The notes under the pieces are model-generated. The model searched no databases, was not told where the DNA came from, and was given only the letters and a program-made list of their open reading frames with translations. Position numbers and translations under genes: made by a program. From an uncultured virus (IMG/VR IMGVR_UViG_3300032167_000030) (taxonomy: Duplodnaviria > Heunggongvirae > Uroviricota > Caudoviricetes), in IMG/VR virus record IMGVR_UViG_3300032167_000030: a stretch of 49,938 bases of DNA. One strand, written 5' to 3'. Numbering within the stretch: position 1 is the first letter of the stretch; each line of letters opens with the position of its first letter. This document shows positions 8,388 to 23,250 of this stretch, piece by piece.

Positions 8388-10717
8388 TTAGATGTTTGCC
8401 GCAGTCATAGTCTTCTTATTGGTATCAAAGAATAGATCCATATAGTCATCATACTTAGTAAAAGTATCATGAATATTCTTATGATTAACACCAATGTTCT
8501 TTAGAACGCCAACCATGATGTCCTTGGGAAGTACCTTACATACTTCAATGAATCTCTTACAGCTATTTTCACCAGTCTTCTTATCATTGAATTCCTTAAT
8601 GTTTTCGCTAATGTAACGAATGCAACGATCAATGATAACGAACTGTCTAGTGGATGTATCACCCTTAATCTTGTTAAGTACGTTATTGTTAAATTCCTTA
8701 TCAGAAGACTTGAAAATATCCTTAGTAGAAGTAATAGGATTCTTCTTATCTCTCAGGAAACCAATTAGCTGGGTTGCAGGAGTCTGACCAACTACACCCT
8801 TTGCTGCTTCAAACAACATACTTTCAAAATCTTCAGGATAGTAATTCTTAATCTGTCTCATTACCTTAGAAAGAAGTTCCCAACCTCTAGGAGTGGGCTT
8901 GATGTCTTCTTTACTATGAGGATCGTGAAGTAGATTAGGCATTTCTGCAATAAACTCAATTACGTCAGAATCAATTGCTTCTGTACCAGTTTTGTTATCA
9001 TCCTTTGTGTTAGATGCCCACTTAAGCCAGTCCTTTACATCAGCTTCAAGTGTATACTTAACAAACCGATTCTTCATGGCGTCGTTCATAACCTGAACCT
9101 GATAGTCGTTATCATCGTCATACTCAGGGTTACCTGCTGCAACAATAATACAAGAATCAGGAAGAATCGTTTCATTGATTCTACGGTCAAGAATCAACTG
9201 CATGAGTTCCTGATTCACTGCTGCTTCACATCTATTTAGCTCGTCAATAAAGAGGATTGTGTTGATACCTCTAGTATCATTATCCAAAATCTGCTGCATT
9301 TTAACATGTGTAGTGTAATCGTTGATCATTTTCTTGCTATTTTCATCACGTCTAGGAACGGGAATACCACCGCAAAAATCATGTAGTTTTCACTACCATA
9401 TTTCTATGTGATTTTTCGACTATCTTTTATCTAGAAACAATCTAGATCCTCATCCTTCGGATTGTTTATCCTACTCTACTCCCTTCGTGTAAGTATTTCA
9501 ACTTACCTTATTACTAGTTTAAAACTAGTTGGTTTCGATAGTCTGTACACCTTCATCTCTTTTGAGAAGCTTGGCACGGTATTGTCTGCTATCCATTTCT
9601 GGACCGTAGAGTCTCTTAGTCAGCTGCTTCGTGATAGTAAACTATCCTTATTCCACTGATACCGTTAGCATTACTTAATACGATAAGTAACACACCTTAA
9701 GATCTTACCTTAAGTTCATGAGGTTTGTTAATGAAGAACCCATTAGTCTACAAGTTCAAATTTAATGTTTTTGTAAGAATTACGTTCTTTTCTTAAAACT
9801 CTTCTAATATGGTTTGGATTTGTAAAACCCTTTTTTTCACAATAGATTTTTAATTCTGTTCTATCTATTGTTTCAGTATTACCATCTGGATAGGTTATAA
9901 GAATTTTTCTTTTTTCTGGATTTAGACTATTTTCGAAATTTCTTATAGTAGAATTTTCACTAGTAGATATGAAACAACATGTTTCCTTGCTATAAATTCT
10001 TTCATTCTTAGGAATGTATTTTTGTTTCTTATCTTTGTCCATACTAATTTCACCATTTTCAAATTTTTCAAAATCAAATCCTTCAATATCATAAAGGTCA
10101 TTTAGAAAATTGTTATAGTTCAACCAATTAGAACAAACAGAAACACCAATACCACCATATGAATTATAGTCTTTGTTTTTTTCATCATAGCAACGATGTA
10201 ACATGTTTTTATAAATTCTATATGTTTGCTTAGTATGCCTTGGATTTGTTTTAGCATCACCAAAACAAGCAACACCAAGAATAGTTATCTGATAGTAATC
10301 TTTAACACTTCCTTTTGTTATAGAACTACTACCAACTATAGCTGAATATCCACTTTCTAAAAATGTGATTTTACACATTTTTTCATACTTTTTTATTTCT
10401 ACTATCTCATCTACTATAAAATCTAAACCATCGTTATTTGTGAAAGTAACTCCAACATCAACATTAGGTTTTGTTTTTACTCTCATAAAAACATCCCCTT
10501 TATTAAAGAATTGTAACCTTTAGTTAAGCTCTCCCTCTTTTAGTAGCGCACCGAATAAGGTAACGATAGGTACTTCCTCAAATCCTTTTTCACGATAGAG
10601 ATTTGCTACGTCTCTAATCATCTGCGACTTACCAACACCAGCATGTCCTTCGATATAAGGTACAACACCTGCCACCGAAGTTACGAATACCTGATCGACC
10701 AATTCTGAATACTTCAT
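8388..10717 (-). CDS. MoxR-like AAA+ ATPase, two exons (10527-10717, 8388-9372), 391 aa after splicing
   Basis: Exon 1 has Walker A GHAGVGKS; exon 2 has Walker B LFIDELNR, AAGNP, NRF and PTPRGW. The splice GAG CT|C GGT GGT restores EGELGGIP. Confidence 0.88.
9373..10526 (-). mobile_element. Group I intron (IA-like) in the AAA ATPase gene
   Basis: Exon ends in U and intron ends in G. IGS GGUUCUUC pairs with exon GGAGAGCU. P3 ccucau/augagg, Q aauaccgugccaagc, R guacagacuauc, S aaagauaguc, P9 with GAAA tetraloops. Confidence 0.9.
9743..10486 (-). CDS. Intron-encoded HNH-type (His-Me finger) homing endonuclease
   Basis: NMLHRCY...YGGIGVSVC..W...F...MDKD...YSKETCCF...EN motifs of phage HNH-like endonucleases; C-terminal HTH-like segment. 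Confidence 0.75.
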   Translation of the reverse strand: MRVKTKPNVDVGVTFTNNDGLDFIVDEIVEIKKYEKMCKITFLESGYSAIVGSSSITKGSVKDYYQITILGVACFGDAKTNPRHTKQTYRIYKNMLHRCYDEKNKDYNSYGGIGVSVCSNWLNYNNFLNDLYDIEGFDFEKFENGEISMDKDKKQKYIPKNERIYSKETCCFISTSENSTIRNFENSLNPEKRKILITYPDGNTETIDRTELKIYCEKKGFTNPNHIRRVLRKERNSYKNIKFELVD

Positions 10718-10812
10718 GATTTTGTCTCCTTTTTGATTAGTTGTGTTGTAGTATTTTGTTTACAGAATTATTAAATATATTTATAAAAATTTTTACTTTT
10801 TATAGTTATAAG

Positions 10813-10968
10813 CTAAATAATCTCATTATCATTAAATTTCACTACTTCATCTTCGTCTAATTTAGTTTCACAACTTTCACATCTATAAAAACTAGTATAA
10901 CTATTTCCTGTAATATCATTTGTAGTTACTGTTAGTAATAAATCACAACCACAGTTAGGACATTTCAT
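10813..10968 (-). CDS. Small zinc-ribbon protein (51 aa, not in ORF track)
   Basis: MKCPNCGCD...YRCESCET with two CxxC pairs; RBS aaagtaggt. Confidence 0.65.
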   Translation of the reverse strand: MKCPNCGCDLLLTVTTNDITGNSYTSFYRCESCETKLDEDEVVKFNDNEII

Positions 10969-10993
10969 AATAGTATACCTACTTTCTTAGATT

Positions 10994-11410
10994 TTAACCA
11001 TATACAATTTCTTTAAATAAGGCATATTGGAAAATACAATCAGCAGAATTAGCATCTAGATTACATAGGTCTAACTCAAAACAACCACTATCAACTATAT
11101 CAGTAGAACAACTCTCGATATACATCTTAATTCCATTAAGTAACATATCGATATCTAACAACCAAGAAGTATTCCTATCTTCATCATCAATAAATCTTAG
11201 TTTCTTTCCATCCAATAGTAGTTTGGAACAATATTCACTAGTGGTTAAATTAGATTTTTCAAATTCATTCCATTCTTCAGTAGTATTATCCAAACAAGCC
11301 CAATATCCAATACCGCCTTCAATTGCTGTAACTACAATATCTTCAATATCCTGATCGGTGATTTTTAGATTGAATTCAATTCTAATAGGCATTTCTTTAT
11401 TTTCTAGCAT
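10994..11410 (-). CDS. Hypothetical phage protein
   Basis: 138 aa ORF, RBS aggagg, motifs TAIEGGIGYW and DANSADCIFQYALF. Confidence 0.8.
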   Translation of the reverse strand: MLENKEMPIRIEFNLKITDQDIEDIVVTAIEGGIGYWACLDNTTEEWNEFEKSNLTTSEYCSKLLLDGKKLRFIDDEDRNTSWLLDIDMLLNGIKMYIESCSTDIVDSGCFELDLCNLDANSADCIFQYALFKEIVYG

Positions 11411-11422
11411 TCTAATTTCCTC

Positions 11423-11596
11423 CTAGATTTTTAGAAGTATTTTGAAAGTTACTAATAAGATCAAAAATCCAATAATACCAATAGATAGAATACAAAATCC
11501 TTCATAACGAGATTTTTTAAATAGTGTTATAGTGATTAATCCAATTAGTATTATAACAATACATGGTATCATGAATAGATTAAAGAGATCGTTCAT
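11423..11596 (-). CDS. Small two-TM membrane protein (57 aa, not in ORF track)
   Basis: MNDLFNLFMIPCIVIILIGLITITLFKKSRYEGFCILSIGIIGFLILL...; RBS aaggag. Confidence 0.65.
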   Translation of the reverse strand: MNDLFNLFMIPCIVIILIGLITITLFKKSRYEGFCILSIGIIGFLILLVTFKILLKI

Positions 11597-11631
11597 CTTA
11601 GAATATACTTCTCCTTTAATATAGAGATAAA

Positions 11632-11674
11632 AAATTCGACTATTTCAAGATATAACCTTGAAATAGTCGAATTT
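11632..11674 (-). terminator. Intrinsic terminator
   Basis: aaattcgactatttcaag/cttgaaatagtcgaattt 18-bp stem. Confidence 0.8.
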
Positions 11675-11687
11675 ATAGGATTACCTT

Positions 11688-11858
11688 TTACATCATTCTC
11701 CAAAGTTTAATGATAGAGGTAACAAACAGAATAATTCCAATAGATTCAGGAATATCTCCATCTTTTTTGTTTAGTGTATCATTTATGTTGATATAACAAC
11801 CAGAAATTATAAGAAGTACACTAATAGATACAATAAACATACAGATTTGTACAGACAT
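11688..11858 (-). CDS. Small two-TM membrane protein (56 aa, not in ORF track)
   Basis: MSVQICMFIVSISVLLIISG...ESIGIILFVTSIIKLWRMM; abuts the upstream stop; RBS gaggtg. Confidence 0.6.
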   Translation of the reverse strand: MSVQICMFIVSISVLLIISGCYININDTLNKKDGDIPESIGIILFVTSIIKLWRMM

Positions 11859-12047
11859 TTAGAAAATCACCTCTAATAAAGGAAAAATAAGTAGTACTAC
11901 CATAAAAACATACATAATTACAGTATGTGTAATGACAATAGATCTACTAAAACTTGGTTTAATTTTCTTTAAAGCTAATAGAAATTTGACTACATATACT
12001 GTAAAGAAAACTAAGATAGCTAATACAAATATAACTAAACCAGTCAC
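11859..12047 (-). CDS. Small two-TM membrane protein
   Basis: 62 aa with two hydrophobic segments; overlaps the gyrA stop by 4 nt. Confidence 0.7.
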   Translation of the reverse strand: MTGLVIFVLAILVFFTVYVVKFLLALKKIKPSFSRSIVITHTVIMYVFMVVLLIFPLLEVIF

Positions 12048-15000
12048 TTTAGAATCACCTTTCTTACATAGTCTTCATTAGTCAAACTAACTAATTTCTT
12101 ACCATAAGTAGGTCTCTTTAAAGGTTCTTTGAATTCTTCAGTATTGACTACTAATAGTTTGCTATCAGTAACAATCATTAGTTCGTCATTTACATTATTG
12201 ATAGCTACCATTGAAACTAATTCGTCATTTTCTTTTAGTTTCATGCATAGTCTGCCTTTAATGTTGGATGAGCGTTTTAGTCTAGGAAAACCATCATTGA
12301 TGATTACTTTTTCTTTAGTATTGGGATCAACTTTTTCTACATTATCAGTAATACGAATAGTTTTACCTAAACCATTTTTAGTAGCAAAGAAGATTAGTTG
12401 TTCGTCATCTTCAATGATACACATATCTGTAATACGGTCATCATTTTCTAGATTAATACCAATTACACCATAGGTATTTCTACCTAATTCTTTGATTTCT
12501 TCATGATCATATCTAACTGTCTGAGCATTTTTAGTAGAAATCAAGATATCTTGCATAGGTTTACTAGTATCAATATACTTTACAGAAACTAGTTCATCAC
12601 CAGACTTTAACATCAAAGCAATAATACCAGTAGAACGAATGTTATTGAATTCTTCTAACTTAGTTTTCTTAATCATACCATTCTTAGTAGCGAAAACTAG
12701 GAAGGATTCATTATCATTCATCTGTGTATTATTGATACATAGAATGTTAGTAACTGTTTCATTTTCTTTTAGATTTAGATAATTTTCAATTCTTAAACCC
12801 TTAGCTTTAAGATCCTTAGATTCTTTAATGTCATAAGCTTTTAAATCATAGACTCTGGCAGTATTAGTAAAACATAGTAGATGATCCTTAGTAGAAGCAG
12901 AGAACATTTCTGTGATAGAGTTATCACCAATAGAAATACCCTGAGTACCACGTTTCTGAGTTCTAAACTCATTTGAAATACGCTTAATGTAATTACCCTG
13001 AGTAATGACAATCAAAGTATCTTCATCAGCAATAATGTCTTCAGTAGTAATATCAGTATCAATCTCTTCTACAGTAGTCTTTCTTTCACTACCATATTTT
13101 TTAGCAAATTCTTTCTGTTCTTTCTTAATTCTTTCATAGATATTGGATTCTTTCCAATTCTCTTTTAGTTCTAGAATTTCTTTTTGCTTACTTAGTTTTT
13201 CTTCTTCTAGCTTCTTTCCATCTAGAGAGTTTAACTGAGAAAGTTTCATGTCAAGAATAGCTTCAACCTGTAAATCAGTAAATCCATATTTCCTAACTAA
13301 CTTTACTTTAGCATCAGCTCTTCCATTAGCTTTCTTAATGATACTAATAACAGTATCGATATCAGTTAATGCTTTTAATAGACCTTCTAGAATATGTTCA
13401 CGATACTTAGCTTTCTTGATATCATGTGTAATGATACGTCTAATAGTAGATACACGGAATTCAATCCATTCAGTTAGAATTTCCTTGATGTTATAAACCT
13501 TAAAGAAATTACCATTCTTACAAACTAGAATGATCTTAAAAGTAGATTCTAACTGAGTGAACTTGTATAACTGATTTAGAATAACATCAGGGTCATAATC
13601 TTTCTTGATAAAAACTTTAATACATAGACCATTCTTATCAGAAATATCGTGAATATCCTTAATTCCATCAATTGTACCATCTTTAATCTTAGCTACAATG
13701 GAATTAATCAAACCACCCTCAGTATTAGTAGATGTGCCACTCATACGAGGACCAATTGTAGTCATAAATGGAATTTCAGTAATAACAATTTCTGATGTGT
13801 TATTCTTATTTCTATTGATAGTTGCTCTACCTCTTAGTTTTACTGAACCCTGACCAGTAATGTAAGCTTTTTCAATTTCCTTCTTAGAACATAAGATACC
13901 ACCTGTAGGAAAGTCAGGAACTAGTTTCTTAGCTACATCTTGAACTGACATATTAGGATTATCAATTAGTTCACATACAGTATTACATACATCCTTGATG
14001 TTATGTGGAGGAATTGAAGAAGCATAACCACCTGCAATACCCATTGAAGAATTCAATAGGATATTAGGAATTACTGCAGGTAAAACAGTTGGTTGATCTT
14101 TAGTTACATCATAGTTCTTTTCAAAATCAACAGCATCCTTATCGATTTCACTAAGAATATCTAATCCATATTTACTAAGTTTTGCCTCAGTATTATGACT
14201 AATAAAACCATTACTAATAAAACTATGATCATTAGAATCTACTTTAATTGAATATACTACTTCTTCTGGTAGTCTTTCAACTTCAATAATTTCTTCATAA
14301 TGGTATAAATCTAAAACTTCAAGTTTTCTCATAAGCTTAAAATATTCTTCATAACTCAAAGAATCTTTAATTACATCATTATGTTTATCTATATCTTGTT
14401 TACAATTTAGGCTATGAGACTTTAAATAATGTGTATTTCTAAGTTTATTATTTCTAATGAATTCGGCAAGATATGGAATTTTATCTGAAGAAGAAACACC
14501 ATAAGACTTAGTAATTTGTATTTCTTTATTTTCTACTAATTCATTCAATACTTTATTTTTTCTATCACTTAAAAATCCTATTTTTTCTTTAAAAATTTTC
14601 ATGTCAGTTAAAGAATAAATTGTAAGTTTAAAATTAGATCTGTCTTTAGTAACTTTAGTTCTAATACCAAAATTCATTAATAGAATTTTTAATTCATTCA
14701 AAAGTTTTGTTGAAGAAGTAGAATAAAATACATGTCCAGTAACATTATCTTTTCTTCTTTTATCTAAACGACATGTTACTCCTCCATCTCCTTCAAAAAG
14801 TGCCTTTAAAAACCATCTTTGAATTTCTAAATTAGAGTTTAGAACATAGGGAGGAATCTGTTTATTATGAGCATCTTCACCAATTTGTTCTTTAACTAAA
14901 TTATGAAGATTTTTGTCTTCAGTACAAAATTCTTTAACTCCACCACGAGCATTTGGATTAATACGAATATTCAAATTACTTAGATTATTCTCTTCAAGAT

Positions 15001-15859
15001 ATACTTTATATCCAGATTCCACTAGATTATAGTATTCATTATCTTGATTGGAGAAACTTACTCTATAGTATCTCTGATTTTTAGATAAACCTCCTTCAGA
15101 AACCATTCCACCAAAGAAAATTGCTTTAAGCTTTTCTTCTTCACTTATAGTTTCATTAAAAGAATTATTGAATTTAGATGCTATAACAGCATAACATCCA
15201 GTTTCAATTTTATCTAAAGTTGTCCATCTGAATTCTGGTAGACCATCAGTAGGATTTTTATATAAACACAAGATAGGATGATTATAACTACCTCTAATAG
15301 TACAACCAGAACTGGTTTTAATCTTGATTATATCATGTTTTCCAGAATTAAAGAATTTAGAAACATGTACTGGATTATTTTTAAAATCTAATACTTCAAA
15401 ATCTACATCCATAGTTGAATCATCATTAGAATTTTCAATTAGTTCATCAATTCTTTTTAATTTACCATTTGGTAGACTAATTAAGGTATCACCAGTCACA
15501 CAATATCTATGAGCTGCTGCGCCTGATCCATCAATAGAACCACATGCACCATGAAAATCAATTAATGGAATATTCATAGAATGAGTCTGAGCAAGTCTAC
15601 ACAATGCTTCATAAGCTGCATCTAGTGAATGTGGATGGAAGTTAGCAATAACATCACCAGCAATCTTAGCACACTTTACATGGGGTTTATTTGGAAAGAA
15701 ACCTGAACTGTAACAACTCCAAAGGATAAATTTCTGTACTGGTTTTAATCCATCTCTAATATCAGGAATCGCTCTATCATACATTAGAGACATCATATAC
15801 TGAAGCATATTGTCTTTTTGAATATCAACAATATCCTTTTGAATTACATTCTGTGCCAT
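12044..15859 (-). CDS. gyrA: DNA gyrase subunit A with intein (834 aa mature)
   Basis: RAIPDIRDGLKPVQ, HPH, AAHRY|TEAKL, PDFPTGG, GyrA-box-like QKRGTQG and CTD pinwheel repeats. Confidence 0.95.
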   Translation of the reverse strand: MAQNVIQKDIVDIQKDNMLQYMMSLMYDRAIPDIRDGLKPVQKFILWSCYSSGFFPNKPHVKCAKIAGDVIANFHPHSLDAAYEALCRLAQTHSMNIPLIDFHGACGSIDGSGAAAHRYCVTGDTLISLPNGKLKRIDELIENSNDDSTMDVDFEVLDFKNNPVHVSKFFNSGKHDIIKIKTSSGCTIRGSYNHPILCLYKNPTDGLPEFRWTTLDKIETGCYAVIASKFNNSFNETISEEEKLKAIFFGGMVSEGGLSKNQRYYRVSFSNQDNEYYNLVESGYKVYLEENNLSNLNIRINPNARGGVKEFCTEDKNLHNLVKEQIGEDAHNKQIPPYVLNSNLEIQRWFLKALFEGDGGVTCRLDKRRKDNVTGHVFYSTSSTKLLNELKILLMNFGIRTKVTKDRSNFKLTIYSLTDMKIFKEKIGFLSDRKNKVLNELVENKEIQITKSYGVSSSDKIPYLAEFIRNNKLRNTHYLKSHSLNCKQDIDKHNDVIKDSLSYEEYFKLMRKLEVLDLYHYEEIIEVERLPEEVVYSIKVDSNDHSFISNGFISHNTEAKLSKYGLDILSEIDKDAVDFEKNYDVTKDQPTVLPAVIPNILLNSSMGIAGGYASSIPPHNIKDVCNTVCELIDNPNMSVQDVAKKLVPDFPTGGILCSKKEIEKAYITGQGSVKLRGRATINRNKNNTSEIVITEIPFMTTIGPRMSGTSTNTEGGLINSIVAKIKDGTIDGIKDIHDISDKNGLCIKVFIKKDYDPDVILNQLYKFTQLESTFKIILVCKNGNFFKVYNIKEILTEWIEFRVSTIRRIITHDIKKAKYREHILEGLLKALTDIDTVISIIKKANGRADAKVKLVRKYGFTDLQVEAILDMKLSQLNSLDGKKLEEEKLSKQKEILELKENWKESNIYERIKKEQKEFAKKYGSERKTTVEEIDTDITTEDIIADEDTLIVITQGNYIKRISNEFRTQKRGTQGISIGDNSITEMFSASTKDHLLCFTNTARVYDLKAYDIKESKDLKAKGLRIENYLNLKENETVTNILCINNTQMNDNESFLVFATKNGMIKKTKLEEFNNIRSTGIIALMLKSGDELVSVKYIDTSKPMQDILISTKNAQTVRYDHEEIKELGRNTYGVIGINLENDDRITDMCIIEDDEQLIFFATKNGLGKTIRITDNVEKVDPNTKEKVIINDGFPRLKRSSNIKGRLCMKLKENDELVSMVAINNVNDELMIVTDSKLLVVNTEEFKEPLKRPTYGKKLVSLTNEDYVRKVILK
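14192..15502 (-). mobile_element. LAGLIDADG intein (437 aa) in GyrA
   Basis: Starts CVTGDT right after the catalytic RY. Block B GSYNHP, endonuclease motifs FFGGMVSEG and FLKALFEGDG. Ends FISHN followed by Thr. Confidence 0.95.
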
Positions 15860-15873
15860 TATGTGTTCTCCTT

Positions 15874-17217
15874 CTATACTAGATTATAATATACGTAATC
15901 TAATAAAAATTTTCTTTCATTTACAATAGTTTCATTAATAACTTCATTAAGGACTGTATTTAGTATTTCACCTATACGTTTACCTTCAGGTACACCCATA
16001 GCAATAATGTCTTTACCATTAATTGCTAAGTCCTTTATAGTAAAACATTGATTAGATTGGATTATTTCAGCTAAAATTTTTCTAAGTTTATCATTTCTTT
16101 CTAATCTAGACTTCTGTGTATCTTTGGAGTGTGCTAACATATCTGCTTCACGAATATCAAGAAGTCTTAAAAATTGTTTTTCACCAATTTTATTTAACCA
16201 TCTACGTACTGTTTTTGGTGTTGGTTCAATAGTTGAATCATGGTATAATACTAATTCAAGAACATCATGTTTTGTTTTATTATCAAATCTTAAATTGTCT
16301 AATACTTTCTCTGCTATATCATGACTTACTACTCCATGACCATAAAAATGTCCTCCGTTACAGTCTTCAGTATAACAATGAGGTTTGCCAATATCATGAA
16401 GTAAGAGTGATATAATTACTACTAAATCCGAACCTCCATAATTGTATACTGCATGTCTGATATGATCATAAACATCGTATTCATGATAACGATTATTTTG
16501 ATTAAATCCAATACAAGGTTTTAATTCTGGAATAATAGTTGTAATCACATCTTTATAGTTTGCTAAAATATAGGATCCACCATAACCAAGTAACAATTTA
16601 CATAATTCGCTATTAATGCGTTCAATGGCAATATTTTTAAGTAAATCCTTATTTTTATGAATAGCTTCTTGTGTGGATTCTGCAATTGGAATTTCATATC
16701 TAGAAGAAAAACGTAAAGCTCTCATAATACGTAACGCATCTTCATTAAAACGTTCATTAGCATCTCCAACACAAGAAATTATACCATTCTTTAAATCCTT
16801 ATAACCATTAAAATAGTCAATCAAACCATCTTGTTTGTTATAAGCCATAGCGTTTATAGTAAAATCTCTTCTTGCAAGATCTTCTTTAAGGTTACTAACA
16901 AATGTTACTGAATCTGGATGTCGATTATCAGAATAGTTTCCATCAGTACGATATGTTGTAATCTCATACTGTTCGTCATCTAGAACTATAGTAACTGTTC
17001 CATGTTTTAAACCTGTTTCAATTATACGCTTATCATTAAAAACTTCTAGTATTTGTGGTGGAAGTGCTGAAGTACAAATATCCCAATCTTTTGGTTGTAA
17101 TCCTAACAGACTATCTCTAACACATCCACCGACTATATATGCTTCATATCCATTATCATGTAAAGTATCTAAGATAACATTCACATTATCTGGAATATTG
17201 AAAGAGACATTATACAT
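15874..17217 (-). CDS. cca: CCA-adding tRNA nucleotidyltransferase with HD domain
   Basis: VGGCVRD, DWDI, EDLARRDFTINAMA, EDALRIMR, ERINSE and HDIGKP. Confidence 0.88.
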   Translation of the reverse strand: MYNVSFNIPDNVNVILDTLHDNGYEAYIVGGCVRDSLLGLQPKDWDICTSALPPQILEVFNDKRIIETGLKHGTVTIVLDDEQYEITTYRTDGNYSDNRHPDSVTFVSNLKEDLARRDFTINAMAYNKQDGLIDYFNGYKDLKNGIISCVGDANERFNEDALRIMRALRFSSRYEIPIAESTQEAIHKNKDLLKNIAIERINSELCKLLLGYGGSYILANYKDVITTIIPELKPCIGFNQNNRYHEYDVYDHIRHAVYNYGGSDLVVIISLLLHDIGKPHCYTEDCNGGHFYGHGVVSHDIAEKVLDNLRFDNKTKHDVLELVLYHDSTIEPTPKTVRRWLNKIGEKQFLRLLDIREADMLAHSKDTQKSRLERNDKLRKILAEIIQSNQCFTIKDLAINGKDIIAMGVPEGKRIGEILNTVLNEVINETIVNERKFLLDYVYYNLV

Positions 17218-18259
17218 CTAATGACCTCCTATTTACATCTATTGTAAATTCTTCAATAAGTTCCATATTTGGCTCCATAGGAAGACTAGAATTTTCTTTA
17301 GCATATACTAAACGTTTTTCATAATCAGATACAATATCAAAGAAATCTTTATGGTAAGTACCATCTTCATTTTGATATCTTCCATTACGAATACTTAATA
17401 GAAATTCTATATCATTTTCTCTATAAGTATTGATCTCTTCTTTTTCTAGAATGTCAATAGCCATTAGATACAGTCTAATTAGATGCATTGCATGTTTATT
17501 AAGATGTGCATCATCTTTCTTATGATTTCTATGATTTAGTTTTCCATAACTACTAATTACATTTGATAGAGAGTTTAACATAACAGTAAAATCTCTTGCT
17601 GGAATTTTGTCAAGGTAAATCTTACAGAAAATTTCACAATCTAAATCATCACGATTACTTTTATCTATAAAGAGTTCAACACCATTACCATCAGAAATTC
17701 CATATTTATCAATAAAGTGATTTAAAGATCTTTGCATGGAATTTCTAATGTGTCTTTCATTATCTTCCTGTGATAGTTTATCTCTAGCTATTGCATTTTC
17801 TAAACGACGAAGCTGCTGAGTTGCATATCCACCAAAAGAATCCTCAACTGCTTTTTTAGAAAGAAAAATTTTTCTATTGTCTATTAGTTCTTTACCAATA
17901 TCTGTAATGTAAAAATAGTGTTCTGGTTTACAACCAAGTAATTCAATGGTGTTAGGATTGCAGCTGATTAAGAGTTTAATCAATTTATTAAAACTATAGA
18001 TTGTCGTATCTGTTGTTGTATTTACTACCTGTTCAAAATTTGACATACCGAGGATATCATTAACACTATTAAGAGCACAACCACGAACATCTACATCTGA
18101 ATTTTCATTATTTGTACCATAGGCATAGCTACCACCTAATGTAAGAAAAATGATTCTATCCTTAAGATGTGGATTAGTTCTTAGAAAATCGTATGATTCA
18201 CCATTAACCATATTTTTGATTTCTTCAATAGTCATTTCATCATTAGTCCTTTCTAACAA
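17210..18259 (-). CDS. Pol-beta-family nucleotidyltransferase (RlaP/YcgL-like)
   Basis: GSYAYG...SDVDVRG, CNPNTIELL, FGGYA and KHAMHLIRLY. Confidence 0.8.
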   Translation of the reverse strand: MLERTNDEMTIEEIKNMVNGESYDFLRTNPHLKDRIIFLTLGGSYAYGTNNENSDVDVRGCALNSVNDILGMSNFEQVVNTTTDTTIYSFNKLIKLLISCNPNTIELLGCKPEHYFYITDIGKELIDNRKIFLSKKAVEDSFGGYATQQLRRLENAIARDKLSQEDNERHIRNSMQRSLNHFIDKYGISDGNGVELFIDKSNRDDLDCEIFCKIYLDKIPARDFTVMLNSLSNVISSYGKLNHRNHKKDDAHLNKHAMHLIRLYLMAIDILEKEEINTYRENDIEFLLSIRNGRYQNEDGTYHKDFFDIVSDYEKRLVYAKENSSLPMEPNMELIEEFTIDVNRRSLDV

Positions 18260-18510
18260 GTTCTATTAGCTAAAGCTGTGATTACTAGTTCTATGATTTC
18301 TCTAGGATCATTGTATTCATAAATCTTAAAGCTAGTTTCTTTAAAATCCTCTTCATTTAAGATAAGTTCACAATTTTTGTATTTTTCTTTAGCTCTTTTT
18401 AATGCTTCTTCTTTACTATCTGCTTTAATAGCAACTAACTTTTGTAAAACTTCTTCAACTTCTACTATAAAAATATGCTCATTTTCTATTACATTCTTTA
18501 AGCTTTCCAT
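18253..18510 (-). CDS. DpnD/PcfM-like protein
   Basis: VEVEEVLQKLVAIKADSKEEAL...Y...ELILNEEDF pattern. Confidence 0.65.
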   Translation of the reverse strand: MESLKNVIENEHIFIVEVEEVLQKLVAIKADSKEEALKRAKEKYKNCELILNEEDFKETSFKIYEYNDPREIIELVITALANRTC

Positions 18511-18535
18511 GATTAACTCTCCTCTAAAACAAAAT

Positions 18536-18570
18536 AAAGAGGATGTTTTAATGAATAAAACATCCTCTTT
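18536..18570 (-). terminator. Intrinsic terminator
   Basis: aaagaggatgtttta/taaaacatcctcttt inverted repeat. Confidence 0.75.
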
Positions 18571-18579
18571 TTAGTGTTT

Positions 18580-19017
18580 TTATAAAGTTACAAACTGCTT
18601 AGTTGCATTGGCAATATCTTCTCCTAGAGCAAAACCTACAGATAGTAGAAGCATGCTATCAGTATTGGTATTAGAGAAAACATCACTACATAGGAAATAA
18701 CCAAAAAGCATCTTATCAGAATCTTCTAGATATACAGAACAATCTCCAACAATTAAAGAATTGTCAGCATAGCCTTCTCGCTGTTTGATTTCATCAATAA
18801 TCGACTGCTGAGTTTCTGGATTAAAGCAATCTTCTAGACAGATATCATAGTCAATTCCTAATGTAAAACATTCTGCCACTTCAATCTTACTAATTAAAAA
18901 GTCTTTGTCAATGTTTGTTTTTTCTAAAAATTCATTAAACTTACCATTTTCAATTAGATCAATCGTAACTTTTTCTGCTTCTTTTAGATCTCTTACTTCC
19001 TTACCAAAACTATACAT
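18580..19017 (-). CDS. Hypothetical protein
   Basis: 145 aa ORF, RBS aaggagg, early-type motif upstream. Confidence 0.75.
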   Translation of the reverse strand: MYSFGKEVRDLKEAEKVTIDLIENGKFNEFLEKTNIDKDFLISKIEVAECFTLGIDYDICLEDCFNPETQQSIIDEIKQREGYADNSLIVGDCSVYLEDSDKMLFGYFLCSDVFSNTNTDSMLLLSVGFALGEDIANATKQFVTL

Positions 19018-19059
19018 AACTAATGTCCTCCTTAAAAATGTTTGATTTTTATGACAGGT

Positions 19060-19070
19060 TTATTATATAT
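19060..19070 (-). promoter_or_regulatory. Putative early promoter ATATATHMTAA-N4-R
   Basis: ATATATAATAAacctG; the motif recurs in nine intergenic regions. Confidence 0.6.
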
Positions 19071-19146
19071 AGTTAAAAAGAAAGTTAGAAAATTACCAAA
19101 ATTTTCTTTGTTTTCCTGAACCTAGATTCTTTCTAAACATTGGTAG

Positions 19147-19497
19147 TCAAACAACAGAGTCATCCTCAACTGACTTACATAAAGCATCAATAGCTTCAAT
19201 TCTCTCATCTTCTTCCATTGTTTTACCAATAACAATGAACATGTACATCATATGAGACAGAGGGGTATCGAATTCAGACTTCTTATAAACAACCTCATTA
19301 CATCTAATGGATTTATCAATCTGAGTAGTGTAAGCTGCTTCTGGATGTAGATAATGAACTACATTGTTATTGAAATAGAAGTTTTCCATAGTCCACTTCT
19401 TAAGCATCTTAATAGTAGTATCATACTTATTATTGACGTTTTTTCTAATGTCAGTAACTTTGTAATCCTGAGTTGCATCTATAGTAACTTGTGCCAT
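19147..19497 (-). CDS. Hypothetical protein
   Basis: 116 aa ORF, RBS aaggag, late-type motif upstream. Confidence 0.75.
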   Translation of the reverse strand: MAQVTIDATQDYKVTDIRKNVNNKYDTTIKMLKKWTMENFYFNNNVVHYLHPEAAYTTQIDKSIRCNEVVYKKSEFDTPLSHMMYMFIVIGKTMEEDERIEAIDALCKSVEDDSVV

Positions 19498-19530
19498 ATA
19501 GTAATTTCACTCCTTAAAAATAGTTTTCAT

Positions 19531-19542
19531 TATAGAAATGTT
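19531..19542 (-). promoter_or_regulatory. Putative late promoter AACA-N6-TA
   Basis: AACAtttctaTA following the gyrB terminator. Confidence 0.6.
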
Positions 19543-19561
19543 ATAAATCCTATTAAAACAA

Positions 19562-19597
19562 AAAAAGAAAGTATCTAAAATAAGATACTTTCTTTTT
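19562..19597 (-). terminator. Intrinsic terminator after gyrB
   Basis: aaaaagaaagtatct/agatactttcttttt inverted repeat. Confidence 0.8.
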
Positions 19598-19604
19598 GTA
19601 TTAG

Positions 19605-22600
19605 TTAGATTTCTAATTCCTTAATCTTTTGCTGATTTTTCATTAAGAATACTTTACGTTTGTCTGCATACTTACTATTAGAATTTAGTAGTGTATCCAT
19701 AGTATCATCTGTCTTTTCTTCATCTGATAGTACAACTTGCATAATGTTTCTAACTGAAGGATCAAGAGTAGTTTCCCAAAGTTCATTAGCATCCATTTCT
19801 CCCAAGCCTTTGAATCGACTTCTGGACTTAGGTGTAACCTTGTTATACATGTCTTGATAGTTCTTAATTGATAGATGATAATCATTGATGAATACTTCTT
19901 CAGGAATACTAAGATCTTCTAGAATCTTCTTAGCTTTTTTAGCAGACTTTACTAAATCCTTAATTACTGCATTTACAAAGCTATTATCATAAAGACCATT
20001 AATCTCAGAATTTCCTTCATCATTCTTAAAGAATTCAAAATCACCAATCTGTTTTAATAAATTCACAATATCCTTACTTGTTGCATTTTCATTAGTACGT
20101 AAATAATCACATACATCATCAATTAAATACATATTGATACCTGTACTAGTAGATAGTTCACTTACTTTGTTTTTGTAAGTTTCAAAATTCTTAAGAATGG
20201 TTTTAGCTTTAGTCTTATTTAAACCTATCTCATTACAACTAAATACATAGTTTTCAAAAATCTTTTCCTCAATATATGCATCATATTCCTCTTGATTTAA
20301 GAAATAACGTTTCTTATTTCTTTCAATGATAGAATAAAGAGGAGGCATTGCAATATACATGTAACCTTTTTCCAAAATGGGTTTAGCATGTCTATATACA
20401 AATCCTAAGATAAGGCTTGCAATGTGAAGCAAATTACTTTGCATAATTTAGACTATATTTTCTATACTAAATTAGTATAGCCTAGCTTTTCGGTACTTTG
20501 TAATTTACATTTCCCTACTCTACTCCCTTCGTGTAAGTATTTCAACTTACCTTATTACTAACATTAAGTTAGTTGGTTTCGATAGTCGTTGAACTCATAT
20601 CCTATCTTTTACTAAATGTAGGATACTTCGTTGCGTCGATTGTATCAAACACTATTCTTTTTACTATATCTTTGGAGTTACCCATTGCCACTAAGTATAT
20701 TACTATCTTAGTTTAGTAAATAGTGTTTATTGATAGTTTCCCGCAGTTAACTAGGTTTTTAGACGGCATTCACTGCAAGTCAAATTAGATTATTTTCTTC
20801 CAATATACTTCTTAGTTTGCTCATCAAATCTTCTTTATAAGAAATTCTATAAAGTTTTATACTGTTTTCTTCACAAAAAGCATTTTTTATAGTGTCATGT
20901 TTTTGAGTTAGCTCAAATCTAATAAGTCTTTCTTCTTTAGTTCCTCCAAATTGTGCATTAGGATCAGAATGTTGTTGTCCATCATACTCAATTAAAAAGT
21001 ATTCATCATTGACTTTATCAGTATAAACCAATATATCAAATGGAAGAAAACGTTTGTCTACACATTCTTCAAATGACACTTCTGATTCATACTCAATTTT
21101 ATTAAAATCTAGAACACTTTTAATATCCTGTATTGGTTTAGAATTATTCTGACTTTTATTCATGTCAGCACATAAAGGACATCTATATCCTTGCTGAAAG
21201 TCATTATAACGAACAAGGTATGAATAACTACATGTTTTATGTCTAACCCAAATTTTTTCTTTATTATTTTCATACTCATTACTAACTACCTCATATTCGT
21301 CATTAGATAATTCTTTTACACTTTCAATAATAGATTCTAATGTATGAGGTTTTATTCCAGTATTAAGTACTCTTTTTTTATTTGCACAGTTTGGACAACG
21401 TCTTTTATGAGAAGTAAACTCATTTGGAGTTACTCTATACTTATGTCCACAAACATTATGTATTACCCAGAGTTTAGTTTTACTCGTTACATAAGTTTCC
21501 AGAAAAGTATAATCATCACCAACTTGTTCGTAAACTTTACTTAAAAATTTTTCAGATGCTTTTTGTTTAAGATTTTGAGCTTGTTTTTTACAATTTTCAA
21601 TACCAGAAGCATATCTTTCTTTAGTTTCTTTTTCATTTTTCATTTGAATGAAACCTCCTAACATTAATACTAATGTATTGTTAGAAAATTTCTCACTGAT
21701 GCAGACTTAATGTGTCATTTACCGTCATCGTCAGCATCAGTCAAGGCTACCAGTTTATGATACTTCATGTCTTCAACATTGAAATTCTTACCAATTGCAG
21801 TTTTCTTACCAGTTAAGATATAAATCAAATCTGATAGTTCCTTATTTTCAAAAATCTTAGTTTCAGCTAGATTGTTAGTATTGAGAATCTTACCTCTTAG
21901 AGCATAAACAGCCTGAGTTTGCTTATCTCTACCATTTCTAGCACTTGAACTTGCAGAATTACCCTCAACTACAAACAGTTCACATTCTTCAGGTTTCTTA
22001 GAAATACAGTTAGCTAATTTTGATAGATCAGAAACAGCAGTAATTCCATTTTCAGATTTCTTATTAGCTAGTTCTTTAGCTCTCTTAGCAGCACTGTTAG
22101 CCTTTGCAGATTCAATTACTTTAGTACAAAGTACTTTCATTTCTTTAGCATGGGTTTCAATCCACTTACTAAATTCTGCATTAACTGCTTTCATTACTGC
22201 ACCAGAAACTTCTGTAGAGTTAAGCTTTTTCTTAGACTGCTGATCATACATCGGATGAGGATGTTTGATAGATACTACTGCTACTACACCTTCCTGAACT
22301 GAATCACCAGTAATGTCTAGATTTGCATCTTTTTTAGTTAGTAGGTTATTATCAGCAATATACTTTTTAATCAAACTAGTAAGAGCTGTTTTAAAACCAG
22401 TTTCATGAGTACCGCCATCACTAGTATAAATGGAATTACAGAAGGATTTAATATTGATAGGATCAGTAGAGTTATCATAAGTAAAGGAACAATCGATTTC
22501 TACATTCAATTCTTTATTAGCCTTGTTAACAGTAGTTGATGTAGAGAATGTAATAGGATTAAATAGAGCTTTCTTAGCATTTAACTGTACGTATTCCTCA

Positions 22601-23250
22601 ATACCATCTTTATGATAATACTTAGCCTGTTTCTTTTCATCCATGTCCTTAATAATGATAGTAAGTCCTTTATTGATAAAAGACTTCATCTTACATTCAT
22701 CTTTGACTGATTCAATGTCAATCTCAAATGTATCCATTACAGATTCATCAGGACAAAACTCTACAATAGTACCTACCTTATCAGACTTTCCTAAATCTTT
22801 TAGTTCAGTTACTTTCTTACCATATTCAAATCTTTGAGAGTATTCATGACCACCTTCATGTGTAATGACAAGGAAATACTTACTAAGTGCATTAACACAT
22901 GTACTACCAAGACCATGCTGACCACCTGATGTGCTATAACTATCTTTATCGAATTTACCTGAAGCATGTAATGTAGTAAATGCTCTTTCAATAGATTTAG
23001 GAGGAACACCACGACCTTCATCAATTACTCTAAATACACCTTTTTTATTGGAAATTTCAATTGTAATTGTTTTACCAAAACCATTTAGGAATTCATCAAT
23101 AGAGTTATCAATTACTTCTCTTAGTAGATGCGTATTACCTTCTTTACCAAGACTACTGATATAGACTGTAGGATTAGATCTTACATTATCAGGATATTCT
23201 TGGACTTTAATACTATCTTCGTTATATGTTAGATTCTTTTTAGTCGCCAT
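19605..23250 (-). CDS. gyrB: DNA gyrase subunit B, two exons (21721-23250, 19605-20429), 784 aa after splicing
   Basis: EVIDNSIDE, LHASGKF, GGTHE, VEGNSA, LRGKILN. Splicing joins TDADDDG|LHIASL. Exon 2 has PPLY and RFKGLGEM. Confidence 0.93.
20780..21643 (-). CDS. Intron-encoded endonuclease with zinc-ribbon repeats and a Vsr/DUF559-like nuclease domain
   Basis: Two HxxC...RCPxC repeats; PFDI...IEYDGQQH...HDTIKN...LYRISY. RBS aggagg favours ATG 21643 over 21664. Confidence 0.75.
   Translation of the reverse strand: MKNEKETKERYASGIENCKKQAQNLKQKASEKFLSKVYEQVGDDYTFLETYVTSKTKLWVIHNVCGHKYRVTPNEFTSHKRRCPNCANKKRVLNTGIKPHTLESIIESVKELSNDEYEVVSNEYENNKEKIWVRHKTCSYSYLVRYNDFQQGYRCPLCADMNKSQNNSKPIQDIKSVLDFNKIEYESEVSFEECVDKRFLPFDILVYTDKVNDEYFLIEYDGQQHSDPNAQFGGTKEERLIRFELTQKHDTIKNAFCEENSIKLYRISYKEDLMSKLRSILEENNLI
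21671..21682 (-). promoter_or_regulatory. Putative late promoter inside the gyrB intron
   Basis: AACAatacatTA immediately upstream of the endonuclease RBS. Confidence 0.55.

Follow-up and report, generated by a model that had tools for sequence, protein, structure and literature searches.

Two introns of an uncultured virus (Caudoviricetes), each with its own, unrelated predicted nuclease gene, share a block of 74 nucleotides (nt) that forms a branched RNA domain. The excess identity of this block is best explained, with a probability that we put at roughly 60%, by short-patch recombination (gene conversion) between introns of one genome. The DNA that was analysed, here called the window, is a stretch of 49,938 nt and corresponds to the minus strand of 112231-162168 in the 319,626-bp record IMGVR_UViG_3300032167_000030 of IMG/VR. 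Both introns lie on the minus strand of the window, intron 1 in a gene for an AAA_5-type ATPase and intron 2 in a gyrB-like gene, and each holds one copy of the block:

9470..9543, minus strand: block copy 1, comprising the 5' strand of P7 (9543..9537), J7/7.1, the closing pairs of P7.1, the hairpins P7.1a and P7.1b, the linker GAGUAGAGUA and the first GG of P7.2
20514..20587, minus strand: block copy 2, with the same set of elements as copy 1

In a repeat search of the window, 9470-9543 and 20514-20587 emerged as a single 74-nt direct repeat of 92% identity, with 68 of the 74 bases matching in the order 47 exact, 9 variable and 18 exact. An earlier account drawn from the letters alone (the sequence-only reading) had claimed just this arrangement of 47 and 18 identical nt around a 9-nt variable segment, and the repeat search and a count of the 47-mer bear it out. 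Even if up to three mismatches are allowed, the window has exactly two occurrences of the 47-mer (0.00 expected, from 100 shuffles), and these two are its only copies in the whole 319,626-bp record. When the full introns were compared by blastn, the block was the sole significant similarity (E = 7e-27), the next match having E = 0.22, and the products of the two intron open reading frames (ORFs) are unrelated (BLASTP best E = 0.15). The sequence-only reading was right that the remainder of the introns and their nucleases differ; the two introns are different lineages sharing only the module.

All six differences between the copies are confined to the 9-nt segment, such that 6 of 9 bases differ at the tip of P7.1a versus 0 of 65 in the remainder of the block. 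On the RNA (minus) strand, four of the six form two compensatory pair changes in the P7.1a stem, which reads CUAGU...ACUAG in one copy and CUAAC...GUUAG in the other, and two fall in the loop. The hairpin is maintained, as the sequence-only reading had held.

The block is a small branched RNA domain in which P7.1 bears the hairpins P7.1a and P7.1b; AAUAAG connects the two, and ACGAAG closes them. Its order on the RNA is the P7 5' strand GACUAUC, GAAA, CC, P7.1a, UAAUAAG, P7.1b (GUAAGU-UGAAAU-ACUUAC), ACGAA, GG, the linker and the first GG of P7.2. GACUAUC pairs downstream with GAUAGUC or AUAGUC, the CC after GAAA pairs with the GG before the linker and thereby closes P7.1, and the P7.2 hairpin is followed by GAAG and then by P3'. 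Thermodynamic folds give three hairpins in both copies, and in the Rfam alignment of intron 2 the block is inserted between P7 and P3'. The earlier placement of the block between P7 and P3', in the P7.1/P7.2 region, holds in this alignment and in the covariation described below, with the block starting at the P7 5' strand. Two other pairings were considered and set aside. The minimum-energy fold pairs UCG (in AUCGAAA) to CGA (in ACGAAG), an arrangement that does not nest with the covarying closing pair and whose partners are invariant; for the linker GAGUAG with the P7 strand as a third helix, invariant partners likewise give no covariation. A passage of PMC1995217, citing Golden et al. 2005, says that P7.1 and P7.2 of the Twort ribozyme encircle and stabilise the guanosine-binding pocket. 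By analogy, the P7.1 domain described here would wrap around the guanosine-binding site in P7 and stabilise it.

To what extent the identity of the block merely reflects its conservation can be judged from the family of introns that carry it. The family was searched for with a motif of 18 bases, taken from the block's 3' end and with one position free; every family locus was picked by this 18-mer, and members that vary in it were missed. Within viral_contigs the motif was found at 62 loci, 61 of which are preceded by the full module context, consisting of a GACTATCGAAA-type R element, hairpins, AATAAG, a further hairpin and CGAAG; L057 is the only locus without it. Within genome_contigs it was found at 12 loci, and three of them (L068, L075 and L078) carry the module. 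The other nine were rejected as lacking module context; no R element stands in the 140 nt upstream of them, and they look like chance matches. The sequence-only reading had asked whether the 47-mer marks many introns; the exact 47-mer gave 0 loci in viral_contigs and 0 in metagenome_contigs, from both of which the window's own record is possibly excluded.

Across the 47 distinct modules the structure is well constrained. The base N of GAAANC and the base N' of CGAAGN'GAG form a standard pair in 46 of 47 (A-U in 12, G-C in 19, G-U in 8 and C-G in 7, the remaining one being A-C), and it is this covariation that identifies the closing helix of P7.1. In 43 of 47 modules P7.1b is a hairpin of four or more consecutive pairs, and it occurs in 34 distinct sequences, and GG...CC hairpins of the P7.2 kind follow the module across the family. 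At the sequence level, GACTATCGAAA stands at the start of 40 of the 47 modules, and the introns of T4 td and nrdD, of Twort and of the Bacillus phage AR9 have CC...GG followed by GAGTAG(G/A)GT. Joiners, P7 strand and linker make up about 36 of the 74 bases, and this portion, about half of the block, is generic, class-wide conserved sequence. The joiners are the most conserved sequence of the family, whereas the hairpins vary freely; one loop of P7.1b, UGAAAU, recurs in L005, L012, L014, L026, L031 and L037. By a crude motif classification, each module subtype (simple hairpin, AAAUGUAAC type and AAUCCAUAAGAGC type) is found with all three types of P3-P6 domain. The branched P7.1, with joiners that hardly vary, marks out a large family of phage group I introns, which is mostly unannotated and scores poorly with Rfam.

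These data reverse one premise of the sequence-only reading, that this peripheral region outpaces the core in divergence, given that the joiners are the family's most conserved sequence and recur at 61 of 62 viral loci. The same reading had allowed that the block might be no more than a generic IA-subgroup sequence. That is so for the P7 strand, joiners and linker, about half of it, and not for the freely varying hairpins. It is in the hairpins, variable in the family yet identical here over all but the P7.1a tip, that the identity exceeds family conservation.

To quantify this excess, every pairing among 63 introns was scored for the identity of its modules and for that of its flanks, the flanks being the 150 nt upstream and the 100 nt downstream. 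In the 1658 pairs that span two contigs and whose flanks are less than 0.6 identical, module identity has its median at about 0.68 and its 95th percentile at about 0.81-0.83. Only 8 of the 1658 reach 0.9; seven of these are duplicates of one lineage, and one is genuine (L014-L037, 0.91). The pairs of introns that reside together in one contig gave the following values:

Intron 1 and intron 2: module identity 0.92, flank identity 0.54
L012 and L013: module identity 0.99, flank identity 0.60
L058 and L059 (a relative of the L012 lineage): module identity 1.00, flank identity 0.59
L046 and L060: module identity 1.00, flank identity 0.53
L034 and L035: module identity 0.94, flank identity 0.64
L036 and L037: module identity 0.73, flank identity 0.55

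The pairs L015-L045, L061-L062 and L066-L067 repeat lineages already listed, and L039-L050, fully identical, is uninformative. Thus, excess module identity in otherwise divergent co-resident introns is also found in four other phage lineages, with perfect identity across about 113 nt in L046-L060, and in AR9. Three introns of AR9 (KU878088.1; 152223-152482, 118423-118734 and 96474-96740) have an identical 64-nt P7-P7.1-linker module, while the identity outside it is 67-70% on the 5' side and 54-85% on the 3' side. L035 is particularly telling. It is nearly identical to its ortholog on a different contig, L009, for some 250 nt on the upstream side and some 60 nt on the downstream side, but its P7.1a hairpin and a few bases before it are those of its genome-mate L034, unlike those of L009. 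The suggestion that modules had been exchanged or converted between introns thereby gains comparative support, from the co-resident pairs and from L035.

According to this interpretation, the hairpin half of the block would be identical through recent copying of DNA from one intron into the other. The copying would proceed, as the phage replicates, by homologous recombination over a short patch and without crossover, with the invariant joiners as anchors. The two introns are 11 kb apart and have the same orientation, and a crossover between them would remove the essential genes in the interval; with such products lost, only conversion products would survive. Six differences within 9 nt, versus none in 65, are not what drift after one conversion event would leave, and the tip of P7.1a would have been either outside the converted patch or exchanged separately, as in L035. 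The P7.1a of intron 1 is similar to that of the L012 lineage and the P7.1a of intron 2 is unique; the transfer could have gone in either direction.

Several observations weigh against gene conversion. To account for the clustering of the differences, one has to assume in addition that the tract was patchy or that a separate exchange took place, and the invariant anchors, of 11 and 18 nt, are short for homologous recombination. We infer the event and have not seen recombination directly. The within-contig pair L036-L037 shows no excess, and the between-genome pair L014-L037 is high in spite of divergent flanks. L014, on an unrelated contig, has a 43-nt run, P7.1b plus linker, in common with both copies of the block, and part of the identity could therefore be subfamily conservation. 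Selection by an exact 18-mer also raises every module identity somewhat. Finally, both introns are far under the Rfam gathering score (16.5 and 10.9 versus 50 bits), and their splicing is a prediction from sequence.

The L014 run also speaks for plain conservation, in which the two introns would be old paralogs, the block the most constrained part of the ribozyme in their subfamily, and no DNA would have been exchanged. The recurrent UGAAAU loop points the same way, as does the half of the block that is invariant in the 47 modules and present in T4, Twort and AR9. We nonetheless regard this explanation as unlikely, as the hairpin stems covary freely, equally divergent pairs from different genomes almost never reach 0.9, and in the trio L035, L009 and L034 a hairpin has been replaced by the genome-mate's version. 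It is less likely still that a phage or host protein or RNA binds P7.1 and aids or regulates splicing of both genes, with co-resident modules selected to match one another. The within-genome matching of modules in five lineages and AR9 is also expected from co-evolution with a genome-specific factor, and among the 13 matches to the Rfam model RF00028 in the record, the module is present only in the two large, ORF-bearing introns. However, no candidate factor was identified, and perfect identity over loops, stems and joiners alike, along up to 113 nt in L046/L060, points to copying rather than to selection at contact positions. The differing segment, moreover, keeps its hairpin by compensatory changes, a structural constraint and not a sequence-specific one. 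A related idea, in our view just as doubtful, is that the branched P7.1 is an exchangeable cassette kept identical because a genome-specific reader, such as a phage splicing cofactor or regulator, recognises it. Were this true, splicing of essential genes (gyrB and the AAA ATPase) would be under joint control, the identity would be a footprint of co-evolution, and gene conversion would be its means.

The history could also have run the other way, if one intron was duplicated to a second site and its P3-P6, P8-P9 and ORF were later replaced, leaving the block as a remnant and not an import. Module subtypes and P3-P6 types do reassort across the family; J6/7 and P4-P6 of intron 1 resemble those of type-B introns (L024, L025 and L044) and of introns in named Firmicutes phages, and the J6/7-P7 stretch of intron 2 equals that of L014 and L037. 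This course is improbable, as more events are needed than for a single short patch, although present data do not separate it from gene conversion, and both amount to mosaic recombination. That the assembler collapsed or copied a repeat can be virtually dismissed. Contigs of other runs do break inside the block (at 9487 and 20560), as happens at repeats. In contrast, record 17 of run X5, a contig of an independent sample, covers 9092-10801 and crosses copy 1 with 0 differences, so that copy 1 is not an assembly artefact; the six differences between copies preserve structure; and the same pattern is present in the cultured phage AR9. Two other contigs deserve mention. One from run X3 that joins 9491 to 20555, with 33 other letters between, resembles an L010-type module of another phage and was rejected as a recombinant, and one from run X7 that departs from the window at 9470 may reflect the way in which the assembly passed through the repeat.

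Gene conversion between co-resident introns, if it is the cause, makes the within-genome homogenisation of P7.1 a testable example of modular (mosaic) ribozyme evolution in phages. The conserved motif, in turn, suggests a route to finding introns of this kind, which score poorly with Rfam. Our search of the literature on concerted evolution of group I intron modules and on domain shuffling in T4 introns, which was incomplete in coverage, returned nothing relevant. The recurrent homogenisation of the branched P7.1 module may thus be a modest comparative observation that is unreported. The two introns themselves are ordinary for an intron-rich, AR9-like jumbo phage, being IA2 introns with predicted HNH nuclease genes, a known kind.

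By their predicted structure, both elements are IA2-type group I introns on the minus strand, each with an unrelated gene for a predicted HNH-type nuclease. The features of intron 1 and its host gene are:

8388..9372, minus strand: ATPase exon 2 (Pfam AAA_5; 33% identity to the AR9/PBS1 ATPase by tblastn)
9373..10526, minus strand: intron 1, 1154 nt, inside the AAA_5-type ATPase gene (exon junction colinear with the intron-less AR9 ATPase)
9418..9453, minus strand: P3', P8 and P7' of intron 1 (Rfam alignment for P8 and P7')
9459..9471, minus strand: P7.2 hairpin GGAU...AUCC of intron 1 (fold; a GG...CC hairpin stands at the same place family-wide)
9733..9740, minus strand: putative internal guide sequence GGUUCUUC of intron 1, pairing with the exon end GGAGAGCU (10534..10527) to form P1
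9743..10486, minus strand: ORF of intron 1, 247 amino acids, predicted HNH-type homing endonuclease (phrog_2081, annotated HNH endonuclease, E = 8e-47)
10527..10717, minus strand: ATPase exon 1, with Walker A (Pfam; junction alignment)

Those of intron 2 and its host gene are:

19605..20429, minus strand: gyrB exon 2 (Pfam DNA_gyraseB_C, E = 2e-18)
20430..21720, minus strand: intron 2, 1291 nt, inside the gyrB-like gene (exon junction compared with AR9 GyrB; RF00028 alignment)
20451..20485, minus strand: P3', P8 and P7' of intron 2 (Rfam alignment)
20762..20773, minus strand: putative guide sequence GUGAAUGCCGUC of intron 2 (P1 and P10 pairings)
20780..21664, minus strand: ORF of intron 2, 294 amino acids, predicted homing endonuclease with a treble-clef zinc finger (Pfam DUF4379 and CapR; phrog_559)
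21721..23250, minus strand: gyrB exon 1 (Pfam HATPase_c, DNA_gyraseB and Toprim)

Removal of the introns restores a colinear frame in both host genes, gapless relative to the intron-less GyrB and ATPase of AR9. For the ATPase, the junction 10527|9372 yields KEGEL|GGIPVP against KEGELTGMPIN in AR9, without a gap and with a score above that of our first guess; those earlier borders, 10521..9380, implied a 4-residue insertion relative to the AR9 ATPase and were replaced by 10526..9373. For gyrB, the junction 21721|20429 yields DDDG|LHI, gapless against DDDGYHI of AR9 GyrB. The borders of intron 2 have independent support from a run X7 contig of another fecal sample, which joins 20429 to 21725 with four other letters between and represents an intron-less gyrB allele at the predicted site, with synonymous changes in the two codons preceding it. 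The presence of the intron is therefore polymorphic in this phage lineage.

As read from the sequence, U is the last base of each 5' exon and G the last base of each intron. The predicted P1 of intron 1, GGUUCUUC with GGAGAGCU, has eight pairs including a U-G at the splice site, and that of intron 2 pairs GCCGUC with the exon end GACGGU, accompanied by a predicted P10 of 5 bp (GUGAA with UUCAC of exon 2). Because the guide sequences stand directly after the intron ORFs, both nuclease genes would be placed in the P1 loop, between the exon strand of P1 and the guide, and neither intron would have a P2. In intron 1, P3' AUGAGG (9453..9448) pairs with CCUCAU (9723..9718), P8 is 9447..9429 and P7' GAUAGUC is 9424..9418; in intron 2, P3' CUAGG (20485..20481) pairs with CCUAG (20755..20751), P8 is 20480..20462 and P7' AUAGUC is 20456..20451. 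P3 covaries across the family (CCUUCC/GGAAGG, CCUUG/CAAGG and CCUAG/CUAGG).

The subgroup follows from the region around the block. In passages of PMC3428280 and PMC4227781, IA2 introns are described as having P7.1 and P7.2 between P7 and P3', linked by G-U-A. Here, 46 of 47 modules show the covarying closing pair of P7.1, ...GUA forms the end of the linker, and GG...CC hairpins of P7.2 follow. The sequence signature of IA2, GAGTAG(G/A)GT after the closing GG of P7.1, is likewise present, as in T4 td and nrdD, Twort and AR9. A passage of PMC4227781 adds an extended P9 domain with P9.0, P9.1 and P9.2; intron 1 has two hairpins after P7' and intron 2 only one short hairpin before the terminal G.

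Against RF00028, no match reached the gathering score of 50 bits in the whole window, and no group I match appeared in a 14-kb stretch at E <= 10; weak matches to both introns emerged from short sub-stretches only. Alignment to the covariance model, which the sequence-only reading had put forward as a check, succeeded over the full length of P3-P9 for intron 2 (16.5 bits, E = 0.066), with canonical P, Q, R and S elements, while intron 1 scored 10.9 bits (E = 3.5, from a short sub-stretch search), and both stay below gathering. These low scores are due to the long insertions (the ORF and a P7.1 of 45-60 nt) and to the atypical P4-P6 of intron 1. Its core has R, S, P3, P7 and P8, together with a P4 region of GCUAACGG...AAUACCGUGCC type that is common to L024, L025, L029, L032, L033, L044 and L055, and introns of this type score very low with RF00028. 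The 5' domain of intron 1 (9560-9725, minus strand) is unusual in having two extra hairpins between P3 and this P4, and 9567-9633 is 80-87% identical to unannotated stretches of Clostridium, Staphylococcus SPbeta-like, Bacillus G, Enterococcus and Mammaliicoccus phages. Intron 2, from P3 through the block, is about 75% identical to L012, L058 and L026.

The ORF of intron 1 has no Pfam match. That of intron 2 matches phrog_559 (annotated HNH endonuclease) with E = 1.5e-53, its Pfam matches being to zinc-finger domains only, and it has homologs upstream of the module in L012, L014, L058 and others.

The phage is present in at least 10 animal fecal metagenome runs, and the runs listed for it include none of RNA. 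Two of the 13 RF00028 matches in its whole record are above the gathering score. Those outside the window (G000 238275-240045, 261655-262019 and 279747-283656, plus 34559, 66462, 174082 and 243745) are mostly small ORF-less introns, several in tandem, and none has the GAGUAGAGUA module. Between ORFs of the window, 18511-18591 forms a strong palindromic hairpin with weak, chance-level matches to several microRNA models on both strands, and is probably a terminator-like inverted repeat.

Among known systems, AR9 and PBS1 (Bacillus jumbo phages, Takahashivirus) have the closest phage homologs of both host genes, with about 33% amino-acid identity. AR9 introns have GACTATCGAAACC ... GGGAGTAGAGTA, the same two ends as the block, but the P7.1 insert between them differs from it in sequence and shape. 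Unlike their counterparts in the window, the gyrB and ATPase genes of AR9 are intron-less, and AR9 introns are more alike over the whole core than the two window introns are.

The only match over the whole block in a named phage, at 75-78% identity, is an intron of the Staphylococcus jumbo phage LY01 (OR836606.1; L005 2281-2671). It has the same joiners, the same UGAAAU loop in P7.1b and covarying stems, and it differs in a P7.1a of the AAAUGUAAC-hairpin type and in its host gene, and is unannotated in the record. The surrounding region of LY01 (L005 1929-3299, within OR836606.1 174398-179498) has five RF00028 matches in 1.4 kb, with very short exons between them and hypothetical proteins only. 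At E <= 0.01, RF00028 matches number 19 in AR9 and 22 in LY01.

The orf142 introns of the Staphylococcus phage Twort are IA2 introns with P7.1 and P7.2, have GGAAGTAGGGTCAAG after P7.1 and bear the signature GAAGTAGGGT. Their P7.1 is short, unlike the branched P7.1 of the window, and we know of no solved structure of the branched form.

The T4 introns in td, nrdD (sunY) and nrdB, also IA2, have a P7 of GACTATC, a CC...GG P7.1 and the linker GAGTAGGGT before P7.2, like the block. The P7.1 of T4 is a simple hairpin of less than 20 nt, whereas that of the window branches into two hairpins and has an insertion of about 45 nt. The ORFs of T4 introns lie in P6 or P9, and those of the window are predicted in the P1 loop. 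In T4, too, several introns of one phage share identical core stretches, and recombination between T4 introns via such shared core sequences was reportedly described by Bryk and Belfort in 1990.

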